Origin: Planctomycetota bacterium
Lineage (GTDB): Bacteria; Planctomycetota; MHYJ01; WSZJ01
Length of the DNA: 64,000 nucleotides
NCBI GenBank assembly: GCA_038060895.1
Contig: JBBTCT010000022.1
Coordinates: 229,301-293,300, forward strand
Reading direction: 5' to 3'
The notes under the pieces are model-generated. The model saw nothing but the letters and a program-made list of their open reading frames with translations, was not told the DNA's origin and did no database searches. Position numbers and translations under genes: made by a program. Of this stretch, positions 8,386 to 49,387 are shown in pieces; the first letter of the stretch is position 1; the number at the start of each line of letters is the position of its first letter.

Positions 8386-10608
8386 GTGGGCAGGGAGCTC
8401 GAGATTCTCGCTGGACTCATGGCAGTCCAGCTGCGCCTCGTGCCGGGCCCCCGATTCATCCACGCCGGCGCGCAGACCGAATCGGACCCGACGAAACTCC
8501 TCACCCGGCGACTGGTCGAGGAACGGGACATCGGCGAAGCCGAAATGGCGTCGATTCTCATGCTGGCGTCGGGGCAGGTCCGGCAGCACGGCGGGGACGA
8601 GACCGCCGCCCTGGCCTCGGCGCCGATCGACCCGAAGCTCCTCGACGCGCTTCTGGAGTGCGGGCCGTCTCCGAAAATGAAAGGGTTGCTGCGGCTGCTG
8701 CGTCCCGCGGAAAAAGTCGGCACTTCGGTGCTGCCGGGGCACGCACCGAAGCTGTCGCTCATCGACACTTCGGAGCTGGACGACGTTCTCGGCGGCGGCG
8801 AAGTCGACCTGGAACAGGAGCTCCGCGGCGCGCGGCCGATGGGCGGCGGCCTGGCCATCCCCGCTTCCATTCCGGCGCCGACCGCGGAATCGGCCGAGGC
8901 GGACGACGTCCGCAGGGTTGAGCGCGCGCTGAAAACGTACGCGGATTCGCTGGCGGCGGCGCAGGGGCAGAAAGGGTTCCATGCCAGGGGGATGACGCGC
9001 GGCGTCTCGGAGTCGAACGTGACGGCGCTCGGGTCCGACCAGTCCGCGACCCGGGAAGCCAGGCAGAAAGCGGCGACCTTGTTCGAGGGATTGCGCAAGA
9101 CGATCGAGGAAGCGGTCGCGCGCCGGCCCGCGAACCGCGCCATCCGGCACGCCGCGGCGGAGTTCTACACGCGCGCGGCGAGCCAGCGCGAAATCGAGGG
9201 AGAGGCGGCGGCTTCTTCCGAACTCAAGGCCCGCGCCCGGCTGCTCGACACCTCCGTTCACTCCGCGGTCCGGCGCTCCGGGACGCTGGGCGTGCGGACC
9301 CGGGCGTTTTCCTGCGCGTGCGTGCGCGAGGGACGCGAGTTCGCGCCCGGCGCGCTGGCACTTCGCGGCCTGAGCCTGTTCACCGGCCTCCCCGCAGTCA
9401 AATCGCCCTCGAAAGTTCCGGGAGATTCCGGCGAATCGGATCGCCCCGTCCGGCTGAAGGCCCACGGGCCCGAGTGCGTTCCGGCGCCCCTTCCCGGAGC
9501 CGACGTCTGGCTCTTCCGGTACGACCTCGGCACGGATCACTCCACGCTCACGACGCCGAAGGACGTGGCCGGGCGCGGGACCGATCCGCTGCCGGTTCAT
9601 CTGCGCGAAGCGCTTTTTGCGAAGAACTCCCCGCACGCGCCGGAAGGGCCCGGCGTCCACCTCGGGAAGACGCCGGTGGAGGGCCTCGTCCTCCCCTCCG
9701 GTTCGTGGATGCTGCTGGTCTGGCAAGCCGGCCGCAATCCGGCGCGGGTGCCCGTGCGCACGGGCGTCAGCGGCGACACTTCCATCGACGTGACGCTGTC
9801 GCTCCCCACGGAAGTTCCGCCGAAGTTCGCTTCGATCGCCGAAGGAACGTTCCTGTACCAGGGGGACGTGAAGAACCCGCACTCGGAGCCCGGCCAGTCC
9901 GGATCGACGCACGAGTTCCTGCTGGCGAAGTACCCGGTCACCGCGAGGGAGTACGCCGAATTTCTGAACGCCCGCTGCCAGGCGGAACTCGACCTCGTCG
10001 TGCGCCGGAGCGCGCCGCGGGACGTGGAAAAGGCGACCACTCTCTGGCCCGGGCCTCCGTTTGCCGTGCCGACGGCGCAGGCCCTCGAGGCCGCGCCCGC
10101 GGAGTTCCGCGCCGCCGCGAAGAAACTCCCCGGCTGCACCGCCGACTGGAATGAACGGTGGCCGATCGTCTCGATTTCGTGGCGCGACGCGATGATGTTC
10201 TGCGAATGGAAGCGCGCCACCACGGGATGGCTCATGACGCTTCCCCACGAAATCGACTGGGAGAAAGCCGCCAGGGGAGTGGACGGGCGGACGTTTCCGT
10301 GGGGGCACGGCCTGAAGCAGGGCAACTGCAATACCGTCAGCGCGCGTCCCGACTCGGCCAGCCCCTCGGCCGTGGAGGAGTTCCCGGCCGACGAGTCGCC
10401 CTACGGCGTCTTCGGGCTCGGCGGGAACGCGCGCGACATGTGCCTCAACCAGCCCGGGCCGGAATTCGCCGGGCAGCGCGTCATGCGCGGCGGCTACTGG
10501 GCGAGCGACGGCCTCCGCTGCCACTCCAGCTACCGCACCTGCGCCAGGCAGGACCACGTTTCCGCGAACGGAGGCTTCCGGCTGATGTGCATCACACGGC
10601 TCTCCTGA
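8386..10608 (+). CDS. FGE-sulfatase (SUMF1) domain protein with long N-terminal region
   Basis: The C-terminal domain contains 'LLAKYPVTAREYAEFLN', 'ISWRDAMMFCEWK', 'LPHEIDWEKAARG', 'ESPYGVFGLGGNARDMC', 'MRGGYW' and 'GFRLM'. Confidence 0.8.
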   Translation: MGRELEILAGLMAVQLRLVPGPRFIHAGAQTESDPTKLLTRRLVEERDIGEAEMASILMLASGQVRQHGGDETAALASAPIDPKLLDALLECGPSPKMKGLLRLLRPAEKVGTSVLPGHAPKLSLIDTSELDDVLGGGEVDLEQELRGARPMGGGLAIPASIPAPTAESAEADDVRRVERALKTYADSLAAAQGQKGFHARGMTRGVSESNVTALGSDQSATREARQKAATLFEGLRKTIEEAVARRPANRAIRHAAAEFYTRAASQREIEGEAAASSELKARARLLDTSVHSAVRRSGTLGVRTRAFSCACVREGREFAPGALALRGLSLFTGLPAVKSPSKVPGDSGESDRPVRLKAHGPECVPAPLPGADVWLFRYDLGTDHSTLTTPKDVAGRGTDPLPVHLREALFAKNSPHAPEGPGVHLGKTPVEGLVLPSGSWMLLVWQAGRNPARVPVRTGVSGDTSIDVTLSLPTEVPPKFASIAEGTFLYQGDVKNPHSEPGQSGSTHEFLLAKYPVTAREYAEFLNARCQAELDLVVRRSAPRDVEKATTLWPGPPFAVPTAQALEAAPAEFRAAAKKLPGCTADWNERWPIVSISWRDAMMFCEWKRATTGWLMTLPHEIDWEKAARGVDGRTFPWGHGLKQGNCNTVSARPDSASPSAVEEFPADESPYGVFGLGGNARDMCLNQPGPEFAGQRVMRGGYWASDGLRCHSSYRTCARQDHVSANGGFRLMCITRLS

Positions 10609-25656: not shown

Positions 25657-25980
25657 ATGGCCTATGCCAAGCTCTTTACAAACTTGTCCGTCGTCAACGG
25701 AGTTTCGCAGTACTCGCAACCGTTCAGTATGGCGGGGAACAACGCGTTCCGGTTCGGAGTGACGGTCTTCAGCAACTCCGCGACGAGTCTGACCTGTACG
25801 CCCCAAGGTTCCATCGACGGACAAAACTGGCGGGACCTCACCGCCGCAACCGGGCTCGTCGTCGGGTGGGCCTCGTTCACGCAAGGGAGCATCACCGACC
25901 TGATGGTGAGACTCGTCTGCACGGTCGTAGGAACCGGGACGATCGTCCTGGCCGCTGATGTGTACACGAGCCAGCAGTAG
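25657..25980 (+). CDS. cassette protein B: 107-aa beta-rich protein (possible major subunit)
   Basis: Strong SD (AAAGGAGG, 6 nt before the ATG). 'TPQGSIDGQNWRDLTAA...LMVRLVC' parallels protein A. A stable hairpin follows the gene. Confidence 0.7.
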   Translation: MAYAKLFTNLSVVNGVSQYSQPFSMAGNNAFRFGVTVFSNSATSLTCTPQGSIDGQNWRDLTAATGLVVGWASFTQGSITDLMVRLVCTVVGTGTIVLAADVYTSQQ

Positions 25981-26026
25981 GAACACGAAGAGTCGGAGCA
26001 GTCGCAACCCTCGGACCAGTCGGGGC

Positions 26027-26055
26027 GGAGGAGAGCCGTCGTCCGGCTCTCTTCC
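26027..26055 (+). other. intercistronic GC-rich hairpin (12-bp stem, 5-nt loop, no U-tract)
   Basis: GGAGGAGAGCCG tcgtc CGGCTCTCTTCC, read directly. It lies between cassette genes B and C. Confidence 0.6.
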
Positions 26056-26100
26056 GTCCGGCTTCCGAAATAAAAACATCGTCGTTACAAAGAGGTCGAA

Positions 26101-26667
26101 ATGCCCGAACTTCCGCTGACCTACGTCTACGAGCCGCCGAACTGGCTTGCGCGCGCGAACGCCTACGGCTCCTGCGTCGGCGGCCGGAGATTCTCCGTCG
26201 CGCATCAGACACCCGGGACGACCGTGACGGGGCAGACCTCCTTCGTGGCCACGACTCCCACGTTCCTGATCAACCAGGCGAGCGCCGCGCACCGCGTCGT
26301 GCTCTCGAACTTCGCGCTCTGCCAGATCGGGACGCCCGCGGGAGGGACGATCCACGTGGCGCTGGCGATCGACTCGTCGGATCGATACTCCTCAGGAGGG
26401 ACGTCGATCACCCCGCAGGCGACCGCGATGCCCAGTGCGCTCACCGCGGGCTTCAGTTTCCGGTTCAACCCGACCGCCGCCGCCGCCAGCGCCGTCCGGA
26501 TCCTGAACGAGTGGACCCAGCCCGCGTGGGCCGGTTCGATTTTCAATCCCGACCTGCATGACGGCGTCCTGATCGGATACACGGGTTCGATTCTGATCTA
26601 TACGTGGGCGGCCACGACGGCGCCGACGTGGATCATCGGCGGCTTCGACGTCCTGGAGGACGAGTAG
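26101..26667 (+). CDS. cassette protein C: 188-aa beta-rich protein
   Basis: SD 'AAGAGG' precedes the start. Ser/Thr/Ala/Gly-rich with alternating hydrophobic pattern ('VVLSNFALCQIG', 'ILIYTWAATTAPTWIIGGFDV'). The stop lies 1 nt before the gene D start. Confidence 0.7.
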   Translation: MPELPLTYVYEPPNWLARANAYGSCVGGRRFSVAHQTPGTTVTGQTSFVATTPTFLINQASAAHRVVLSNFALCQIGTPAGGTIHVALAIDSSDRYSSGGTSITPQATAMPSALTAGFSFRFNPTAAAASAVRILNEWTQPAWAGSIFNPDLHDGVLIGYTGSILIYTWAATTAPTWIIGGFDVLEDE

Positions 26668-26668
26668 G

Positions 26669-27553
26669 ATGCCGACGATCCGAGACCTGAGCCAGGGCGG
26701 CGTCCAGCCTCACGCCTCGACGCACATGTCGGGAGGTTCCGACGCGATCAAGCTCGACGAGCTCGCCGCGCCTACGGACGTCACGACGCTGAATGTCTCC
26801 ACTTCGGCTCACGGGCTGACGCCGAAGCTCCCGAACGATGCGACCAAATACCTCGACGGGACTGGCGCGTTCAGCGTCCCTGCGGGAAGCGGCGGCTCCG
26901 GCTCGTACCTCGGGACCACCGTGAAGACTTCCGGCACGACGTTCACGACCGGAGCCTCCACCAACACGATCCGTGTACGCCTTCAGGCCGGCGGCGGTGG
27001 AGGCGGCGGCGCTGCGTCGAATCTATTCAGCCCCGCCGGCGGCGGTGGCGCGGGCGGATACGCGGAAAAGACATTCGCCGTGAGCCCCTCGACCGCCTAC
27101 ACCTGCGCGATCGGCGCCGCAGGAGCCGGGGGCTCGGCAGGAAACAACAACGGCTCGGCCGGAGGGAACTCCACTTTCGCAGTCGGCGGAACGACCGTCA
27201 CAGCTTTCGGCGGCAATGGCGGAATCGGAACTGCCGGCGGAAGCGGCTCATCCGCGATCTTCGTTCTGGGGGGCGCTGCCGCATCCGTCTCCACGAGCGC
27301 CGACCTGAACGCAAGCGGCTCGCCGGGAGGGTTCGGGACAGGAAGTGGCGGCATTGGTGGTAGCGGCGCCTCGGGAGCCGGAGGTTCGTGCCTCTTCGGC
27401 GCCGGCGGAAACAGCCTCAATACCCAGAGCGGCGGCGCCGCGGGCGTCGGTTACGGCGCGGGCGGAAGCGGCGGCTGTTCGCTTTCCAGCGGCGGAAACG
27501 TTGCCGGCGGCGCAGGACTCGCCGGGGTGATCGTCGTCGAGGAGTTCTCGTAG
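26669..27553 (+). CDS. cassette protein D: phage-tail-fibre-like N-terminus + glycine-rich domain
   Basis: 'HASTHMSGGSDAIKLDELA...STSAHGLTPKLPNDATKYLDGTGAFS' is followed by a 'GGGGGGGAAS...GGGGAGGYAEK...GGNGGIG' glycine-rich domain. Confidence 0.8.
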   Translation: MPTIRDLSQGGVQPHASTHMSGGSDAIKLDELAAPTDVTTLNVSTSAHGLTPKLPNDATKYLDGTGAFSVPAGSGGSGSYLGTTVKTSGTTFTTGASTNTIRVRLQAGGGGGGGAASNLFSPAGGGGAGGYAEKTFAVSPSTAYTCAIGAAGAGGSAGNNNGSAGGNSTFAVGGTTVTAFGGNGGIGTAGGSGSSAIFVLGGAAASVSTSADLNASGSPGGFGTGSGGIGGSGASGAGGSCLFGAGGNSLNTQSGGAAGVGYGAGGSGGCSLSSGGNVAGGAGLAGVIVVEEFS

Positions 27554-27574
27554 CAAGATCGAGGAGATGAAGTC

Positions 27575-28015
27575 GTGAGCGGAAACGGCTGTTCCTTCTG
27601 GGCCCAGAACGTCTCCCCGGAGACGAGCTGGCCGATTTCCTCCGAAGCGCCGGCGGGGATGGACGGAATGTCCTGGTCGAGCGAGTGCGTCTGGGACGCG
27701 ATGTCCTTCCCGCAGGGAGTCCTGCAGGTCTCCGCGCCCGTCGAGATCCGGAACCCAAACAACACCGTGATCTTCTCCATCGTGATCATCGGCCAGAGCA
27801 GCGGGTCTCCTCAGCTCGCCATCGTATTCTCCGGCGCCAATTGTCCGGAGGGTCCCTACACCACGCTGAGCGGGCCGACCAACATCACGACCTTGGGCCT
27901 GCAGTTCCTAGGCGCCGTGACCGGAATCAGGTTCCCCTACGTCCGGGCAGAAGTCATGTCGTCGAACGGGAGTGCGGTGGCGGGGAGCGGGTGCTTTTGT
28001 GTCTCGGAAGCCTAA
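27575..28015 (+). CDS. cassette protein E: 146-aa beta-rich, Cys-containing protein
   Basis: GTG start with SD 'GAGGAG' 9 nt upstream. 'VIFSIVIIGQSSGSPQLAIVFSG...IRFPYVRAEV' is the same style as A and B. Confidence 0.65.
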   Translation: MSGNGCSFWAQNVSPETSWPISSEAPAGMDGMSWSSECVWDAMSFPQGVLQVSAPVEIRNPNNTVIFSIVIIGQSSGSPQLAIVFSGANCPEGPYTTLSGPTNITTLGLQFLGAVTGIRFPYVRAEVMSSNGSAVAGSGCFCVSEA

Positions 28016-42817: not shown

Positions 42818-43285
42818 TTACTCTTTACCGCCGCAGCACTTCTTGTACTTCTTGCCGCTCCCGCAAGGGCACGGATCGTTGCGGCCGAGAGGCGCGCCCG
42901 CATTCTTGAAAGGCGTTCCCTCGGGTTTCGCCTGCTTTTCGAACGCCGCGGTGAGCGCGCCGGCGTAGGTGGCGAGCTGGCGGCCGCCGTAGAGGCGACC
43001 CTCGGATTCCAGGAATTCGAGGAAGGCGCCGACGAGGTGGGGGACGGAGGCGCGCGCTTCGGGTGGAAGGGCAAGCCGGGCGAGGCCGGTGAGGAGGCCG
43101 TTTCTGACGGAGAGTTCGTCGAGATCGCCGGGAGAAACGGAGGCGCACGCCGTTTCCATGAAGGCCATGAGGAGCGGGGCGGCGTCCAGATCGGGGCGTG
43201 CGCGGAAGGGGCGGAAGGGAGTGGACTCGAGGAAGTCAGCGATCCAGGCTTCGACGCTGTCGCGTTCGAACGTTTCCATGGGCAA
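42818..43285 (-). CDS. SEC-C motif protein
   Basis: C-terminal '[18 protein letters not shown]'. Confidence 0.8.
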
Positions 43286-43426
43286 AGCATCGTACGCGCG
43301 GGGCTGCTGTCGCGCGAGTGGCAGGGGGAATAGTCGCCGGAACGCTCAGCCGAGATCGTATAAAATAAGTACTCTGCGCTGCTTAATGATATGCGTGGCT
43401 GGAGTCTGACGCACAGCGAATTTCAA

Positions 43427-43447
43427 CGGGATTATGCACTTGACAAA
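43427..43447. repeat. left terminal inverted repeat CGGGATTATGCACTTGACAAA
   Basis: Exact reverse complement of 45542-45562. Confidence 0.95.
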
Positions 43448-43522
43448 CTTAAAATCCATGAACGAAACTCGTACAGGCATCATGGTTTGCGTCGATTATG
43501 GCCCCGCGATTAAACGAATAAG

Positions 43523-43557
43523 AAAATCGCCAGAGTCCCGTTTCAGGACGCGATTTT
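43523..43557 (-). terminator. intrinsic-terminator-like hairpin after the 42-aa ORF
   Basis: AAAATCGC...GCGATTTT, with inner GTCC/GGAC pairing. On the minus strand it is followed by TTTTCTTATT. Confidence 0.5.
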
Positions 43558-43573
43558 GGCCCGCGACGAGGAT

Positions 43574-43702
43574 TCAGGACTTACGGCGAGGTTTCCCGGC
43601 CTTCTTAGCCCGCTTCAGGGGGGGTGTAGCGAGGGCCTTCCGGATCATGGCGTCGAAGTCCACGCGGGTCACTTCTCGGTGGCTCTCTGGCTTGGGTTTC
43701 AT
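43574..43702 (-). CDS. small basic protein (42 aa), IS cargo
   Basis: 'MKPKPESHREVTRVDFDAMIRKALATPPLKRAKKAGKPRRKS'. SD AAGGAG lies 8 nt upstream and a terminator hairpin lies downstream. The ORF is below the track's size cutoff. Confidence 0.45.
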   Translation of the reverse strand: MKPKPESHREVTRVDFDAMIRKALATPPLKRAKKAGKPRRKS

Positions 43703-43749
43703 CTATCTATCTCCTTGGGGGTTATCAGGCTGATTCCCCTAGAAAGTAT

Positions 43750-43778
43750 TTGACAGCGTCTGCGGCGCAGCTTAGGAT
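43750..43778 (+). promoter_or_regulatory. sigma-70-like promoter TTGACA-N17-TAGGAT
   Basis: -35 at 43750-43755, -10 at 43773-43778. ATG 43786 starts 7 nt after the -10, a leaderless geometry. Confidence 0.5.
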
Positions 43779-43785
43779 TTCCCAG

Positions 43786-44175
43786 ATGCGAAGGAACAAC
43801 AAGATCGTGAGCCTTGGAGAGGAAATCGCGGCGAAGCGCCGGGAGCTGGCGGCGCTTGAGGCCGAACTTGACATCGAAGTCAGGCGGTATAGCGGTGGTC
43901 ATGCGAAGGCTCCACAAGCGGTGGTGACACCGCCTAGACCTGCGGACCCTGAAGAGGTCCTTCTGAGTGATGCCATCATCGCTGGCAAGGTGGTGCCTCT
44001 CTTGGACAGGGAGCCGGATCGGGTGTTCACCGTGGATGATATCACAAGATTGACCGGAGTGCCGCGCCACCTTCTGGTGATGTCTATCGGGCGCATGGTG
44101 CGCTGGCACAAGGTCCACAAAGTGGAAGCTGGCAAGTACAAGGCATCCACGGTTAAGAAAGCGATGGAGGGATAA
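43786..44175 (+). CDS. IS cargo protein: coiled-coil N-terminus + possible winged-helix C-terminus
   Basis: 'MRRNNKIVSLGEEIAAKRRELAALEAELD...FTVDDITRLTGVPRHLLVMSIGRMVRWHKVHKVEAGKYK'. The track starts it at TTG 43750, which coincides with the -35 box. Confidence 0.6.
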   Translation: MRRNNKIVSLGEEIAAKRRELAALEAELDIEVRRYSGGHAKAPQAVVTPPRPADPEEVLLSDAIIAGKVVPLLDREPDRVFTVDDITRLTGVPRHLLVMSIGRMVRWHKVHKVEAGKYKASTVKKAMEG

Positions 44176-44182
44176 AGAAAAA

Positions 44183-44203
44183 CCCTCGGTCGTTGGCCGA
44201 GGG
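44183..44203. other. hairpin CCCTCGG-N7-CCGAGGG between the cargo ORF and the first tRNA
   Basis: Read directly. An A-run lies on the + side and a T-run on the - side, so a terminator function would be leftward only. It could instead be a processing or stability element. Confidence 0.4.
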
Positions 44204-44215
44204 TGTACGTCGGTT

Positions 44216-44307
44216 GGAGAGGTGTCCGAGTGGCTTATGGTGCTGGTTTCCAAAACCAGTGAACGGTGGTGACACACCGTCCGAGGGTTCGACTCCCTCC
44301 CTCTCCG
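44216..44307 (+). tRNA. type II tRNA, Ser-like body (G73, long variable arm), anticodon CCA
   Basis: Manual cloverleaf. Acceptor GGAGAGG/CCTCTCC. D-arm TCC-GAGTGGCTTAT-GGT. Anticodon stem CTGGT/ACCAG with loop TTCCAAA. 23-nt variable arm (ACGGTG-GTGACA-CACCGT). T-arm GAGGG-TTCGACT-CCCTC. Discriminator G. No encoded CCA end. Confidence 0.8.
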
Positions 44308-44325
44308 TTTTGCTGTTCTGAGGCT

Positions 44326-44420
44326 GGCCGGGTGGCGGAACTGGTTTACGCGCCCGACTTGGAATCGGGTGGTTGTCTCTTGACGGGGGCACCATGCGGG
44401 TTCGAATCCCGTCCCGGTCA
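44326..44420 (+). tRNA. type II tRNA, Leu-like body (A73, GGCGGAAYTGGT D-arm), anticodon UGG
   Basis: Manual cloverleaf. Acceptor GGCCGGG/CCCGGTC (one G.U pair). D-arm GCG-GAACTGGTTTA-CGC. Anticodon stem CCCGA/TCGGG with loop CTTGGAA. ~26-nt variable arm. T-arm GCGGG-TTCGAAT-CCCGT. Discriminator A. Confidence 0.75.
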
Positions 44421-44484
44421 GTCTCATTTTTGAAAGATCGAAGCGCCTTTGCGAAGTGCTTGAGGCTGGCGCGTGTCAAAAGAA

Positions 44485-44528
44485 TACAACAAGACTGGGT
44501 GCGTGTCAACTTGCGAAATTGACGCACC
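44485..44528 (-). terminator. hairpin plus T-rich tract downstream of the transposase
   Basis: GGTGCGT(GT)CAA-N9-TTGACGCACC (44498-44528). On the minus strand it is followed by CAGTCTTGTTGTATTCTTTTG. Confidence 0.45.
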
Positions 44529-44541
44529 GCGCCAACTCTGA

Positions 44542-45495
44542 CTAGCGCTTCACATCCCGCTTTGGCGCTTCCAGAGTGAGGCGTTTTCCTTCGGTGCGCT
44601 GGATCGCGTCGAGCATCTTCGCCCCGTCTGACTTCTTCCGGTTGTTGAACGTCCAGAGGTAGGAATCGAGGTACTTCGGAAGGTAGTCATGCCCAACGCC
44701 GTGGAAGATGCCCACGATGGAAGTCTTGAAGTTGGCGAAGAGGCCCTCAACGCCGTTCGTCGTGACGTCCCCACGGGCGTACTCTTCGATGGAGTGGTTG
44801 ACGGTTTCATGCTTCACCATCATCCGCCCTGGCGTGACGTACAGCTTGGATTCGTCTGAGTGAAGCACCGTCCGCTTGGGATCAACGTTCTTCATTACGA
44901 AGCGGCGGATGTCCCGCGCGTTGGCCTTGGGCGCTGGCTTGACGACGGCACGCGCGGACCCTCCACGCTGAACCAGCGCCAGCACGGTTGACTTCTTCAC
45001 GGCCTTGCCACGGCGCGATCCGCGCCCCTTGTGGCCGAAGTAGGTTTCGTCCGCTTCGATGATCCCGGCGAGTGGTGACTTGTCGGAGTTCTGGAGAGCG
45101 TGGCGCACCCGATGGCAGAGAAACCACGCGGTGCGATAACTGCCGAGTTCAAGGTGCCGCTGGATTGCCAGCGCCGAGATTCCTGTCTTGCTGGACGAAA
45201 TGAGGTAGAAGGCCAGCAGCCACTTGTTGAGCGGGATGTGGCTGTCCTCGAAGATCGTGCCAACGGTGCAAGTGAACTGCTTCCGGCACGCCACGCAGAA
45301 CAGCAGCCCCTTGCGAATCTTCTTCTCCGCGTCTGGCTTGAGCCGGGCGACCTTCTCGCGTTCGGTGCAGCCACAGTGCGGGCAAACGGGGCCAGAGGGC
45401 CAGCGCACCGCTTCGATGTAGTTACGCGCGGCGTCCTCGTCTGGGAAGAGAGAGAAGATGTTCGTCAGGCTCACGGCATCGGGCGTCGGGATCAT
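44542..45495 (-). CDS. IS1595-family (ISXO2-like) DDE transposase with N-terminal zinc ribbon
   Basis: 'RWPSGPVCPHCGC...LLFCVACRKQFTCTVGTIFEDSHIPLNKWLLAFYL', 'DETYFG', 'VLHSDESKLY' and 'TNGVEGLFANFK'. SD AAGGAG. Confidence 0.92.
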   Translation of the reverse strand: MIPTPDAVSLTNIFSLFPDEDAARNYIEAVRWPSGPVCPHCGCTEREKVARLKPDAEKKIRKGLLFCVACRKQFTCTVGTIFEDSHIPLNKWLLAFYLISSSKTGISALAIQRHLELGSYRTAWFLCHRVRHALQNSDKSPLAGIIEADETYFGHKGRGSRRGKAVKKSTVLALVQRGGSARAVVKPAPKANARDIRRFVMKNVDPKRTVLHSDESKLYVTPGRMMVKHETVNHSIEEYARGDVTTNGVEGLFANFKTSIVGIFHGVGHDYLPKYLDSYLWTFNNRKKSDGAKMLDAIQRTEGKRLTLEAPKRDVKR

Positions 45496-45520
45496 GGGCG
45501 TCTCCTTTGAGTACGCCTAA

Positions 45521-45549
45521 AAGATACTAGATCATGCTTGTTTTGTCAA
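45521..45549 (-). promoter_or_regulatory. transposase promoter candidate, -35 TTGACA inside the right IR, N17, -10 TATCTT
   Basis: Minus-strand reading gives TTGACA (45549-45544), a 17-nt spacer and TATCTT (45526-45521). Confidence 0.5.
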
Positions 45550-45562
45550 GTGCATAATCCCG
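45542..45562. repeat. right terminal inverted repeat TTTGTCAAGTGCATAATCCCG
   Basis: Exact reverse complement of 43427-43447. Confidence 0.95.
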
Positions 45563-45721
45563 ATTTCAAGCTTAACATTATGATATTAAATAAGTTATGA
45601 CACATTGTCTGCAACGGTTCATTCGGCACGTGCGTTGCAATTCAATCTTGACGCGACCTGATCAACGAACGGTTGCGGCCTTCACTTCCCAAACAACAAC
45701 TCACCGATCGGAGAACGACCC

Positions 45722-46261
45722 ATGAGCAACACATTGGACACAACCATCCGGGTTCAGTGGTCCCCGGCCCCCGGCTCCCCCGAAGCCCTTTCTTCCAACC
45801 GCCGTCTCTCGAAGCTCGCCGCTGCGGCGCTTCACTGCGCCTGGCTGTCCTACATCGCGGCGCTCTTCCTTCCTGCCGCTGTCTACACACCCGGCTACCT
45901 GTGCCTGCTCGGGTCGGCCGTTTCGGTGGTGGTTCTCTGCCTGGGCTCGGTCTCCGCGCTCGTTCCCGCGCTTCTGTTCATCCCGAACCTGGCGATGCTC
46001 CTGAGCCCGATGGTCCTGGCGCGGTCCGTGCGTCGCGGCCGCATGATGCAGGTCCTGAGCGGGCTCAGCGTGGCCGGCGCCATCCTGACCGTTTCGTGCG
46101 GCGCGCTGATCTGCTCCCAGGGGCTCGACACCGGCGGCTGCGGCGGCACGGGCGGACGGAACTCCGATCCGGAGATCGGGTTCTTCATGTGGGTCGTGTC
46201 GGCGGTCTTCCTCGCGGCCGGCACGGTCCTCGCCCGCCGGTCGGAAGGCGCCGCGAAGTAA
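45722..46261 (+). CDS. multi-pass membrane protein, hypothetical
   Basis: Four or more hydrophobic segments, including 'AAALHCAWLSYIAALFLPAAV', 'LLGSAVSVVVLCLGSVSALVPALLFI' and 'FFMWVVSAVFLAAGTVL'. SD GGAGAA. Confidence 0.65.
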   Translation: MSNTLDTTIRVQWSPAPGSPEALSSNRRLSKLAAAALHCAWLSYIAALFLPAAVYTPGYLCLLGSAVSVVVLCLGSVSALVPALLFIPNLAMLLSPMVLARSVRRGRMMQVLSGLSVAGAILTVSCGALICSQGLDTGGCGGTGGRNSDPEIGFFMWVVSAVFLAAGTVLARRSEGAAK

Positions 46262-46353
46262 GTCCGGTCTCCTCTCTGCCGAACGGGCCGCGCGATCCCC
46301 ACGGATCCGCGGCCCGTCGCGTTTCCGGCATTCTTCGGGGACAATGCCCCGGA

Positions 46354-46713
46354 ATGGACCAGCTGAACACCGTGCGCGTTCACCTCCTCGAACTTCATCG
46401 CCTCCTCCTCGCCGTCGAGCGCGAGGACTACGAACGCGTCCACGGCCGCGTGACGGGCGCCACCTTCCTGAACGTGCTGACCTCCGACCCGGCGTTCGCA
46501 TGGCTGCGGCCCCTCACGTCGCTGATCCTCACGCTGGACGAGATGCTGGAAGCGGAACTCACCGAGGCCGACCGGGTGGACGGCATCACGCGCATCCGCG
46601 CTTTCCTGGCCCCCGACGAAAACGGGAACGAGTTCCAGAGGAGGTACGCCGACGCGCTTCAGCAGAGCCCGCACGTTCTACTCGCGCACGGGGTGGTGAT
46701 GAAGGCGCTGTAG
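46354..46713 (+). CDS. hypothetical helical protein
   Basis: C-terminal 119 aa of track ORF 45673..46713, starting at 'MDQLNTVRVHLLELHRLLL'. The upstream part of that ORF is antisense-type junk. Confidence 0.5.
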   Translation: MDQLNTVRVHLLELHRLLLAVEREDYERVHGRVTGATFLNVLTSDPAFAWLRPLTSLILTLDEMLEAELTEADRVDGITRIRAFLAPDENGNEFQRRYADALQQSPHVLLAHGVVMKAL

Positions 46714-46744
46714 ACCGCCGCCGGGCGCTCCCCCGGCTCACTGT

Positions 46745-46772
46745 AATAGACAATAAAACCATTATGTCTATT
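46745..46772. promoter_or_regulatory. palindrome AATAGACA-N12-TGTCTATT upstream of the antitoxin gene (candidate operator)
   Basis: Read directly. It sits in an AT-rich stretch 40-65 nt before ATG 46812. ATTATG direct repeats are nearby. Confidence 0.45.
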
Positions 46773-46811
46773 CTGGGCATTATGGTAATTTCCGTCCAGG
46801 AGGTTTCACCC

Positions 46812-47162
46812 ATGACGACAAGTTCCCTGCCGACGCCGACGGGCGAATCCGTTCCCATGACCAGCTTCCCGGCCTCTGCGCTCAAGAACTCCGCTGCGGA
46901 TGTCCTGGAGATGGTCCTGACCTCCGGCGCCGTTGTCATCACCCGACACGGCAAGGAGAAGGCCGTGATCCTGTCCGTCGAAGCCTACCGGCGACTCGTG
47001 GCTTCCCGCCGCGACGACCTGGACGTTCTACGCGCAAAATTCGGCGGGCTGCTAGCCAGAATGCAGACTCCCGCTGCGCGAAAGGGCGCACGGGCCGCCT
47101 TCGACGCTTCGCCGGATGAAATGGGCAAAGCAGCCGTAAAGGCGGCGCGCCGCCGTGGCTGA
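46812..47162 (+). CDS. Phd/YefM-type antitoxin
   Basis: 'SALKNSAADVLEMVLTSGAVVITRHGKEKAVILSVEAYRRL'. SD AGGAGG. It overlaps the toxin gene by 8 nt. Confidence 0.75.
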   Translation: MTTSSLPTPTGESVPMTSFPASALKNSAADVLEMVLTSGAVVITRHGKEKAVILSVEAYRRLVASRRDDLDVLRAKFGGLLARMQTPAARKGARAAFDASPDEMGKAAVKAARRRG

Positions 47163-47802
47163 CCGCCGCGCCGTCATCACCGTGCTCGCCGGCACGAATG
47201 GCGCCGGCAAGAGCAGCATTGCAGGAGCCACGATTCGTTCGCGCCAGGCGGACTACTACAACCCTGACGAAGCGGCGCGCGCTCACAAGGAAGCGCATCC
47301 GGAGGCGACTGCCGAAGAAGCGAACGCCGCTGCGTGGGAATTCGGCCGCCGCATGCTCGAAGAGGCCGCTCGTGAGCGGAAGAACTTCGCCTTTGAAACG
47401 ACACTGGGCGGCAACACGATCATGTTTCTTCTTGAGAATGCAGCGAATTCCGGTTTGGACGTGCGGATCTGGTACACCGGACTTGCTTCAGTCGAGTTGC
47501 ACCTCAAACGCGTCCGGCAACGGGTCCGCCTGGGAGGTCACGACATTCCCGAGGAAATGATCCGGCGCCGCTATGAGAACGGGCCCCGGAACCTGATCCG
47601 CCTCATGCCGAAGCTCGCCTCGCTGCGCGTCTACGACAACAGTGCCGCAGGGGATCCCGCCGCGGGAGTGGCTCCGAAACCAGTTCTTGTTCTGCAGATG
47701 GAAAAGGGCCGAATTGCCGGGCCGAAGGATCTGTCCCGGACTTCCGAATGGGCGAAATCGATCGTCGCGCGGGCCATGGAACTTCACTCGGCGCCCAGGT
47801 AG
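47155..47802 (+). CDS. zeta-toxin-family P-loop kinase
   Basis: '[15 protein letters not shown]' (Walker A) and 'FAFETTLGG'. About 215 aa. GTG start. Confidence 0.75.
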
Positions 47803-47863
47803 CGACCCCGCTCGGATCGGCATTGTGCTATCCTCCCGCCCCCTCATTTCCGGAACCACCTTG

Positions 47864-49387
47864 ATGCGTTTCGCAGACCTGCACCTGATCGAGCCTCTTC
47901 TCCGCGCCGTGCACGACGAAGGCTATGTCACGCCCACCCCCATCCAGGAAATGTCGATCCCGCACGTGCTGGAAGGGAAGGACCTGCTCGGCTGCGCCCA
48001 GACCGGCACCGGCAAGACGGCGGCCTTCGCACTTCCGATCCTCCAGCGCCTCCACGCCCAGCCCATCCCGAACCCGCGATACGTGCGCGTGCTGGTGCTC
48101 GCGCCCACGCGCGAGCTGGCGACCCAGATCGGCGATTCGTTCCGGACCTACGGGAAACACCTCGGCTTCCGGCACGTCACCATCTACGGCGGCGTCGGCC
48201 AGAACCCGCAGGCACAGGCGCTTCACCGCGGCGTCGACATCGTCGTCGCCACCCCCGGCCGGCTGCTCGACCTGATGCAGCAGGGGTATGCGAAGCTGAA
48301 CCGGGTGGAAGTGCTGGTGCTCGACGAAGCGGACCGGATGCTGGACATGGGGTTCATCCACGACGTGAAGCGGATCATCGCGGCGATCCCGAAGAAGCGG
48401 CAGACGCTTTTTTACAGCGCGACGCTGCCGCGCGAGATCCAGTCGCTGGCGCACGACATCCTGTCGAGCCCGGTTCGCGTCGAGGTCACGCCCGCGGCGA
48501 CGACGGTCGAGAAAATCGCACAGTCGGTGTGCTTCGTGGACAAGGGAAACAAGTTCACGGTCCTTCAGGGGCTTCTGCGCGACACGAAAATTCAGCGCGC
48601 CCTCATTTTCACGCGCACGAAGCACGGCGCGAACAAGCTCGCCAAGCAGCTCAACCAGGTCGGCGTCCGATCCGACGCCATCCATGGGAACAAGGCGCAG
48701 ACGGCGCGCGAGCGCGCGCTGGCGGACTTCGGGCGAGGCAAGATCCGGGTCCTGGTCGCCACCGACATCGCCGCGCGCGGGATCGACGTCGAGGGCATCA
48801 CGCACGTCTTCAACTACGACCTCCCCAACGTCCCCGACAGCTACGTGCACCGCATCGGGCGCACCGCGCGAGCGGGGGCTTCCGGCGAAGCGATTTCATT
48901 CTGCTCCCCCGAGGAGCGCGGCGAGCTGTCCGACATCGAGCGGCTGATCCGGATGACGCTTCCGACGCGGCCGGGACAGCCGGAACGGCCCGCGGCGGGG
49001 CGGCCGGGCGGCCAATCGGCCGGGCGGGCAGGCGGGCGCAGCTTCGGCTCCTCAGGGCAGATGGGCGGCTCCTCGAATCGCTTCAATCGCCCGGGACAGG
49101 GACATGGAGGCCACGCGCACCGCTCGCAGGGCGCGAAGCCGGCCGGTCACGGCCACTCCGGGTCCCACGGCCACCACACTTCCGGCGGTCACGCCGCTTC
49201 CCACGTCCAGGCAGCCTCCCACGGCTCAACTCCCGCGCACCCGGCTCCGCACTCCCACGCCGCGCCTCACTCGCACGGAGCTCCGCGATCCGCCGGCGGT
49301 TCGCATCAGCACGGCGGCGCGCCGGCTCACGGCCAGGGCCGCTTCGCGGGAAAACTCCGGGGACGGCATCCCCGGAAGGGGCGTTAG
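47864..49387 (+). CDS. DEAD-box ATP-dependent RNA helicase (RhlE-like) with His/Gly/Ala-rich basic tail
   Basis: Q-motif 'YVTPTPIQ', 'AQTGTGKT', 'PTRELA', '[13 protein letters not shown]', 'SAT' and '[10 protein letters not shown]'. Confidence 0.92.

Follow-up and report, generated by a model that had tools for sequence, protein, structure and literature searches.

Can an insertion sequence (IS) carry tRNA genes whose bodies belong to one amino acid and whose anticodons belong to another, and what would such genes do in a cell? The question is raised by a stretch of 64,000 nucleotides from a Planctomycetota bacterium (NCBI GenBank assembly GCA_038060895.1, contig JBBTCT010000022.1, positions 229,301 to 293,300 of the forward strand; the whole stretch is referred to here as the window), in which an earlier note had described a Ser-type tRNA with a tryptophan anticodon (CCA) located on an IS. 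We found that this gene, tRNA1 (44216-44307, plus strand), is followed by a second tRNA gene, tRNA2 (44326-44420, plus strand), and that both lie, together with a small open reading frame (ORF129), within a 2,136-bp element of the IS1595 family (43427-45562). It is very probable that these are real, intact tRNA genes with mismatched bodies and anticodons, carried as cargo of the IS.

Bodies and anticodons of the two tRNAs

When ARAGORN was run on the 64-kb window, exactly two tRNA genes were called, both on the plus strand, at 44215-44308 with anticodon CCA and at 44325-44421 with anticodon UGG. In line with this, the Rfam tRNA covariance model RF00005 aligned over its full length with 44216-44307(+) at 48.8 bits (E=2.2e-7 for the 64-kb window) and with tRNA2 at 55.5 bits, both above the gathering score of 29 bits, at or above which a sequence was counted as a member of the tRNA family.

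The helices of tRNA1 could be read directly from the sequence as a 92-nt 7/5 cloverleaf, with a 7-bp acceptor stem (GGAGAGG/CCTCTCC), an anticodon stem of CTGGT/ACCAG, and a 5-bp T stem (GAGGG/CCCTC) closing the T loop TTCGACT. Both the sequence and minimum free energy (MFE) folding gave the variable arm a 6-bp stem (ACGGTG/CACCGT), where at least 5 bp is expected of a tRNA-Ser; MFE folding recovered the acceptor, anticodon, variable and T arms, with z = -3.1 relative to shuffled sequences. The 7-nt anticodon loop, TTCCAAA (44248-44254), holds U33, the anticodon CCA at 44250-44252 and A37, and ARAGORN, Rfam and direct reading of the loop agreed on this anticodon. The intact cloverleaf and the CCA anticodon claimed in the earlier note, which had itself proposed the ARAGORN and RF00005 checks, were thus both borne out. 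Furthermore, the anticodon is no artefact of a single assembly, because an independent Logan contig (ERR3858132, locus L001) is 100% identical to positions 42836-48017 of the window.

With regard to amino acid identity, tRNA1 carries G2:C71, A3:U70, C11:G24 and the discriminator G73, and therefore has all three of the elements G73, G2:C71 and C11:G24 by which seryl-tRNA synthetase (SerRS) recognizes its substrates in Escherichia coli. Its anticodon, CCA, is not one of those expected of serine (NGA or GCU). Compared with tRNA-Trp, it shares CCA and G73 and lacks the class I architecture and A1:U72: it is 92 nt long, with a 21-nt variable arm and G1:C72, whereas canonical tRNA-Trp has a variable loop of 4-5 nt and a length of about 76 nt. 

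Located 18 nt downstream of tRNA1, tRNA2 had been overlooked in the earlier note. The RF00005 alignment contained no non-canonical pair, with every helix intact. The gene encodes a class II, 7/5 tRNA with a long variable arm, A73 and a D arm, GCGG-AACUGGUUUA-CGCG, nearly identical to that of E. coli tRNA-Leu. Accordingly, the features expected of a leucine tRNA are present, namely A73, the class II arm and a D arm of the form GCGG-AAYUGGU..A-CGCG with A14, A15 and G18G19, all except the anticodon: the loop, CUUGGAA, holds the proline anticodon UGG at 44360-44362, followed by A37.

In imitation of an isotype-model check, profile hidden Markov models (HMMs) were built, with the anticodons masked, from 329 class II tRNAs of metagenomic and largely phage-like origin; in 5-fold cross-validation, 97.6% of the assignments were correct. 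The scores of tRNA1 were 41.7 bits for Ser, 33.5 for the long-arm Trp type found in tRNA arrays, 9.6 for Leu and 6.6 for Tyr, while those of tRNA2 were 30.2 bits for Leu, 16.9 for Ser, 15.5 for Tyr and 8.3 for Trp. Global alignment likewise placed tRNA1 nearest to tRNA-Ser and tRNA2 nearest to tRNA-Leu, the best neighbour of tRNA2 being a Leu(UAA) that departs from it within the loop only at positions 35 and 36. The best matches of tRNA1 among sequenced phages were genes annotated as tRNA-Ser; blastn of either gene against E. coli genomes gave no match at the E-value limits used. Masked profiles, neighbours and phage matches are hence all consistent with the Ser-type body first assigned to tRNA1. 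Judged by sequence, both genes are body/anticodon mismatches, Ser/Trp in tRNA1 and Leu/Pro in tRNA2, and the view that the mismatch in tRNA1 is deliberate is strengthened by the presence of a second mismatch in the adjacent gene.

The IS1595-family element and the cargo of its relatives

In the IS1595 family, as classified in ISfinder, a DDE_Tnp_IS1595 transposase bearing a zinc ribbon at its N-terminus is combined with short terminal inverted repeats and a target duplication of 7-9 bp, and passenger genes may be present downstream of the transposase. All of these were found around tRNA1 and tRNA2. A 317-aa transposase is encoded at 44542-45495 on the minus strand (Pfam DDE_Tnp_IS1595, 2.3e-29; Zn_ribbon_IS1595, 5e-12), and it is 100% identical to the NCBI entry 'MAG: IS1595 family transposase [Planctomycetota bacterium]'. 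The inverted repeat at the passenger-gene end, CGGGATTATGCACTTGACAAA (43427-43447, plus strand), is 21 bp long and 100% complementary to the repeat at the transposase end (45542-45562, minus strand); the repeat has only these two matches in the window, with none expected by chance. The identical 7 bases, ATTTCAA, abut both repeats as a target-site duplication (43420-43426 and 45563-45569). The placement of tRNA1 within an IS was thereby confirmed, and the perfect repeats, together with the target duplication, indicate that the element transposed recently.

Inside the element, a promoter-like site (TTGACA-17-TAGGAT, 43750-43778, plus strand, 10 of 12 consensus positions) lies 5' of ORF129 (43786-44175, plus strand) and of the tRNAs. 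On the minus strand, a hairpin resembling an intrinsic terminator (44182-44204; 8-bp stem with 6 GC pairs, then the T-run TTTTCTTTAT) is situated between ORF129 and tRNA1, and a second promoter-like site (TTGACA-17-TATTCT, 44481-44509), which overlaps a repeated TTGACACGC motif, is oriented antisense across both tRNAs. A third such site (45521-45549, minus strand), with its -35 box within the inverted repeat, precedes the transposase gene. These promoter and terminator sites are consensus matches only. Since the minus-strand promoter-like site and the terminator bracket both tRNAs, they predict either a roughly 290-nt antisense RNA (44474 to 44182) or a 3' untranslated region of the transposase transcript that would be complementary to both tRNAs, and convergent or antisense transcription over the tRNAs is plausible from this arrangement. 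An imperfect palindrome, GGTGCGTGTCAA...TTGACGCACC, was also observed at 44498-44528.

ORF129 has been called by NCBI as a 129-aa hypothetical protein in this metagenome-assembled genome (MAG), starting at an ATG; a 141-aa version starting at TTG was not on record in an exact-protein look-up. It is 47% identical to a 132-aa passenger protein of the closest IS relative, and it is an orphan whose family comprises 3 clusters only among 1.84 billion representatives. An AF2 model (pLDDT 67) consists of an N-terminal helix and a winged-helix-like C-terminal domain, and a fold search of the PDB with this model returned weak winged-helix matches only (E >= 0.06), which faintly suggests that the C-terminal half may be winged-helix-like. 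A search of PHROGs with ORF129 found nothing.

The inverted repeat, with up to 3 mismatches, is kept in seven related elements whose transposases are 46-75% identical to that of the window. Each of these relatives has a clean 8-bp target duplication, and the cargo, which fills the interval from the stop codon of the transposase to the opposite repeat, differs: a pair of small ORFs, including the ORF129 homologue, in L008 (2,933 bp); an N6-methyltransferase and a 509-aa protein in L018 (4,587 bp); an N6/N4 methyltransferase in L196 (3,420 bp), on a phage-like contig; a methyltransferase and a ParE-like protein in L198 (4,142 bp); a PIN protein in L204 (3,078 bp); and a tRNA-like gene with anticodon UGG, together with helix-turn-helix (HTH) proteins, in L019/L021 (3,704 bp). 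tRNA cargo was present in 2 of the 7 distinct elements sampled. Because relatives with the same repeats hold other cargo in this position, tRNA1 and tRNA2 can be regarded as bona fide passengers of a cargo-carrying IS1595 lineage. Whereas the passengers of the sampled relatives are mainly proteins (methyltransferases, PIN and ParE-like), the window element carries two tRNAs and ORF129; no report of tRNA genes as IS1595 cargo, or of a Ser(CCA)+Leu(UGG) pair, was found in the open-access literature.

The tRNA-like gene of L019/L021 (L019:5044-5119 and 8773-8848; L021:1094-1169), associated with a transposase 46% identical to that of the window, is 76 nt long and has the place and orientation of tRNA2. 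It is non-canonical: its anticodon stem has 6 bp, position 33 is a C, and its T loop reads UCCGAGU. In assembly GCA_964621525.1, the 3.7-kb element occurs twice, back to back. Two further relatives, L196 and L204, lie in phage-like contigs, one beside an intein-containing family A DNA polymerase and the other beside a P22-type antirepressor; the IS lineage thus moves between phages and cells.

As for the surroundings of the element, a Phd/YefM antitoxin and zeta-toxin pair is encoded about 1.2 kb to its right (46812-47802, plus strand), and it lies in a local dip of the GC content (0.59 at 44-46 kb), which is about 0.66 over the window as a whole; the IS seems to be situated in an accessory, island-like stretch. 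Further away, a cluster of small ORFs (25657-28015) includes a Gly-rich 294-aa protein (26669-27553) whose N-terminus resembles phage tail-fibre proteins, and the lowest GC content of the window, 0.56, follows at 28-30 kb. Together, this cluster and the low-GC stretch may represent the remains of a prophage.

Long-arm tRNA(CCA) genes in other genomes

Other genes of this kind were sought with a pattern combining a Ser-type D loop, the anticodon loop YTCCAAA, a gap of 18-40 nt and a T loop. Among 185,579 species genomes, 10 matches were obtained, 6 of which were real long-arm tRNA(CCA) genes, while metagenome contigs yielded at least 120 matches and IMG/VR viral contigs 44. A stricter first viral scan for Ser-like CCA tRNAs had returned 4 chance matches, none of them a tRNA. 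At the matched loci, ARAGORN called at least 159 long-arm tRNA(CCA) genes, at least 116 of them distinct, and nearly all belonged to arrays that comprise 5-30 tRNA genes; many were located on large viral contigs.

Like tRNA1, the array genes are class II-shaped, with CCA, G73 and a Ser-like D loop (CCGAGNGG). They differ from it in that most have a Trp-like A1:U72 acceptor (ACGU..., AGGU...) instead of the GGAG or GGAA of serine and stand among 5-30 tRNAs, whereas tRNA1 has a Ser acceptor and is carried on an IS with one partner. The discriminators of the long-arm tRNAs in these arrays match the amino acid of the anticodon (U73 in Cys, Thr and Gly; C73 in His; A73 in Val, Ile, Lys and Met), and we consider that they are probably cognate tRNAs with an added arm. 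No description of class II-shaped versions of class I tRNAs in phage arrays was found in the searchable literature, nor anything specific on phage long-arm tRNAs or on Planctomycetes mistranslation in the open-access literature, and an array-type long-arm Trp tRNA had no blastn match in sequenced phages at the E-value limits used.

The arrays are of some interest in themselves. Those observed in metagenome and IMG/VR contigs (loci L022, L028-L030 and L032-L195) contain class II-shaped (80-98 nt) versions of class I tRNAs for Trp, His, Met, Val, Asn, Cys, Lys, Thr, Glu, Gln, Ile, Asp, Arg and Gly. Such long-arm tRNAs often stand beside a normal-length copy with the same anticodon, and short (74-77 nt) Leu tRNAs also occur.

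Only three further CCA tRNAs with a Ser acceptor were present among the matches listed, in L025, L049 and L057. The first, in a Planctomycetaceae MAG (L025:2919-3010), has a flawless 92-nt Ser body with anticodon CCA and ends in GCCA, so that its CCA end is encoded; its setting looks chromosomal, beside a normal tRNA-Leu(CAA) and directly after a terminator hairpin. In L049, the gene (1440-1530) lies just downstream of a tyrosine integrase gene (42-1274), and this adjacency suggests a link to an integrative element. In L057, at a contig end in high-GC metagenome DNA, the gene (124-214) begins 9 nt after a 77-nt tRNA (38-114) that has the alanine identity elements G3:U70 and A73, the glutamine anticodon CUG and G37. 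Across the four Ser-type CCA genes, GGAG, G73 and CCA are invariant, and compensatory changes in the acceptor, anticodon and T stems preserve the cloverleaf; in L049 and L057, the anticodon stem is irregular, and the Ser and long-arm-Trp profiles score about equally. Ser-acceptor CCA tRNAs are rare but recurrent among the matches listed. Every mismatch seen concerns SerRS, leucyl-tRNA synthetase (LeuRS) or alanyl-tRNA synthetase (AlaRS), the three enzymes for which the anticodon plays no part in recognition, and we take this to be the strongest indirect evidence that the mismatches did not arise by accident.

Charging, decoding and alternative explanations

SerRS reads the variable arm, G73 and acceptor pairs, and LeuRS reads A73 and the tertiary architecture of the D arm, as established in E. 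coli and Thermus thermophilus; neither uses the anticodon. Since both are anticodon-blind, the default prediction is that tRNA1 inserts Ser at UGG codons and tRNA2 inserts Leu at CCN codons. In the mechanism that we propose, the 2.1-kb element of the IS1595 family, which transposed recently, brings the two class II tRNAs along as passengers in a Planctomycetota genome. They are probably co-transcribed with ORF129 from the promoter-like site at about 43750, and antisense transcription converging on them from the side of the transposase probably opposes them. Most likely, Ser or Leu would be attached to at least part of each tRNA pool, in competition with host tRNA-Trp and tRNA-Pro, and the outcome would be low-level Trp-to-Ser and Pro-to-Leu substitution. 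Proline tRNAs and CUN-reading leucine tRNAs carry m1G37, according to the literature on TrmD; with A37 in its place, tRNA2 might in addition promote +1 frameshifting to some extent when CCN codons are read. That the genes are expressed, which amino acid they would receive and how the element or its host might gain from them are inferred, and it is only tentatively, with slightly less than even confidence, that we take tRNA1 and tRNA2 to mistranslate.

A number of observations weigh against this mechanism. The Rfam alignment of tRNA1 contains a single non-canonical pair, U10-U25, in a D stem that is already short; the 3' CCA is encoded in neither gene; and the Ser profile leads the array-type long-arm-Trp profile by only 8 bits. 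A long variable arm and G73, which the earlier note had taken as hallmarks of Ser identity, are not diagnostic, since arrays contain at least 116 distinct genes for long-arm tRNA(CCA), and because array discriminators track the anticodon these two features are insufficient for serine identity. The element is apparently single-copy, with the same locus in only a few assemblies, and no tRNA was detected by ARAGORN or Rfam (E<=1) in 10 contigs with the closest IS relative (transposase 75% identical). Finally, Pro-to-Leu substitution at the abundant CCN codons of a 65% GC genome should be costly, and charging may be dual or cognate: G73 and C34-C35-A36 are the main determinants of tryptophanyl-tRNA synthetase (TrpRS), and A73 with G35/G36 those of prolyl-tRNA synthetase (ProRS), so that tRNA1 would suit the former and tRNA2 the latter.

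Of the alternatives, the one that survives best is built on this last point, namely that TrpRS charges tRNA1 and ProRS charges tRNA2, and that the pair supplements host pools or replaces host tRNAs hit by toxins or defences, as has been proposed for phage tRNAs. It would agree with the long-arm tRNA(CCA) genes of arrays, often found beside a normal 72-76-nt tRNA-Trp, with the anticodon-appropriate discriminators of long-arm Cys, His, Thr, Gly, Val and other array tRNAs, and with the related IS copies in phage-like contigs; moreover, G73 and A73 are as suitable for Trp and Pro as for Ser and Leu. However, the acceptor start of tRNA1, GGAG (G1:C72, G2:C71, A3:U70), is shared by 35 of the 83 array Ser tRNAs and by only 2 of the 116 long-arm Trp tRNAs, and its profile score favours Ser. 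Similarly, tRNA2 has neither the C1:G72 nor the G37 that bacterial tRNA-Pro typically shows, and its D arm is that of a textbook tRNA-Leu; long-arm tRNA(UGG) genes are nearly absent from arrays (2 of 39), and both bodies should still be accepted by SerRS and LeuRS. On balance, we judge purely cognate decoding to be unlikely.

The possibility that the tRNAs serve to read the genes of the IS itself was considered and rejected. When the transposase was compared with 78 homologues, three of its four Trp codons fell at positions where Trp is invariant or dominant and the fourth at an aromatic position, its conserved Pro residues were Pro in the homologues, and none of these codons was at a conserved Ser or Leu. 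The Trp and Pro codons of the transposase thus fit the standard code, which indicates that the tRNAs are not present to decode the element's own genes.

A second alternative, which we consider rather improbable, is that the genes produce RNAs that do not decode at all, acting as decoys or substrates for tRNA-targeting toxins or nucleases, as regulators of the IS, or as the toxic half of an RNA addiction module kept in check by antisense RNA or ORF129. Relatives carry addiction- or defence-type cargo here (DNA methyltransferases, ParE-like and PIN proteins), a 160-aa ORF next to the ORF129 homologue fills the place of the tRNAs in the closest relative, and a more distant relative has its non-canonical UGG tRNA-like gene there. 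The minus-strand promoter-like site and terminator flanking both tRNAs would also fit such a role, consensus matches though they are. In addition, the anticodon loops UUCCAAA and CUUGGAA are complementary over 6 nt and could pair with each other; we treat this as a curiosity, because the anticodons of the L057 pair are not complementary. For some allo-tRNAs, Mukai et al. proposed non-translational roles linked to toxin-antitoxin systems or transposons (PMC5389517). Against all this, both tRNAs are fully canonical for translation, with GGTTCGA T loops, G18G19, U33, A37 and 7/5 arms, nothing about them calls for a role outside translation, and no tRNA-targeting toxin could be identified in or beside the element, the adjoining pair being Phd/zeta.

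Lastly, it is very improbable that the genes are decaying copies of host tRNA-Ser and tRNA-Leu captured by the IS, with neutral anticodon changes in unexpressed pseudogenes: the U10-U25 mismatch, the missing CCA ends, the single-copy element, its tRNA-free closest relative and the single substitution that separates Ser CGA from CCA would fit such decay, but both genes score 49-56 bits with intact helices (and no broken pair in tRNA2), the changes are limited to the anticodons, both of which are sense anticodons with U33 and A37 kept, the perfect inverted repeats and target duplication point to recent transposition, and Ser-type tRNAs with CCA turn up again in at least 3 unrelated contigs, where the stem changes are compensatory, once paired with an Ala-type mismatch (L057).

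Returning to mistranslation by Ser- and Leu-charged tRNAs, a more specific form of this reading is that the pair is a selected mobile mistranslation cassette, that is, an RNA-only toxic or host-manipulating cargo in the slot where relatives carry toxin, PIN, ParE or methyltransferase genes, held in check by the winged-helix protein, antisense transcription and/or the 6-nt loop pairing. We regard it as decidedly improbable.

Precedents for charging by body exist in eukaryotes: nematode nev-tRNAs have class II Leu or Ser bodies with the anticodons of other amino acids, and they are charged according to the body. The same holds for the tRNA-Ser(CAG) of CUG-clade yeasts, a class II Ser body with a foreign anticodon (PMC6041473). 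Unlike the window tRNAs, both are eukaryotic chromosomal genes, and the yeast case is tied to fixed or stochastic codon reassignment, with no mobile element. Engineered anticodon variants of yeast tRNA-Ser, such as tRNA-Ser(UGG), are charged with Ser and mistranslate (PMC6827378, PMC6125640, PMC9258585), being toxic at high and tolerated at low levels (PMC6827378, PMC6125640); these are laboratory constructs in a eukaryote, whereas the Ser(CCA)/Leu(UGG) pair is natural and bacterial.

Among bacteria, the closest likeness is to allo-tRNAs, which have a long variable arm, Ser or Ala identity and many non-cognate anticodons, and whose decoding in E. coli follows their identity; they are often near toxin-antitoxin genes, and one overlaps a transposon-related ORF (PMC5389517). 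tRNA1 shares with them Ser identity elements combined with a non-cognate anticodon. However, the acceptor/T arms of allo-tRNAs are of the 8/4 or 9/3 type, their D stem is long and capped by a tetraloop, and their anticodon stem is longer, while the window tRNAs are of the ordinary 7/5 type; allo-tRNAs were reported from Clostridia, Proteobacteria and Acidobacteria, not Planctomycetota, and none was shown inside IS inverted repeats. Neither 'Trp' nor 'UGG' was found in the main text of the allo-tRNA paper (PMC5389517). The earlier note's claim that the combination is undescribed consequently stands for the particular case of a Ser body with 7/5 arms and CCA that has a Leu/UGG partner and is carried on an IS, and does not stand for mismatched Ser-identity tRNAs near transposon or toxin-antitoxin genes, which are known as allo-tRNAs (PMC5389517). 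The tRNA-ProX/ProRSx system of Streptomyces and Kitasatospora is likewise a natural bacterial body/anticodon mismatch and causes missense mistranslation in E. coli, but its tRNAs have class I Pro bodies, anticodons for Ala, Asn or Thr, and A33 and A34, and they are served by a dedicated paralogue of the synthetase (PMC11415595), whereas the window tRNAs have a normal U33, Ser and Leu bodies and no dedicated synthetase.

Natural tRNAs with mismatched body and anticodon are rare, and this locus offers a compact, testable case, with two class II tRNAs of canonical shape and one small protein within a 2.1-kb transposon that is amenable to synthesis and expression. If charging is instead with Trp and Pro, TrpRS and ProRS would have to tolerate class II architecture, which would help to explain the long-arm tRNAs of phage arrays and be useful for tRNA engineering. 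If the cassette reading is true, this would be the first transposon with deliberate recoding of sense codons as its payload. More generally, if SerRS and LeuRS charge the two tRNAs, a mobile element could spread proteome-wide Trp-to-Ser and Pro-to-Leu ambiguity between genomes, which would bear on how codon reassignments begin and on mistranslation as a weapon or a stress response.

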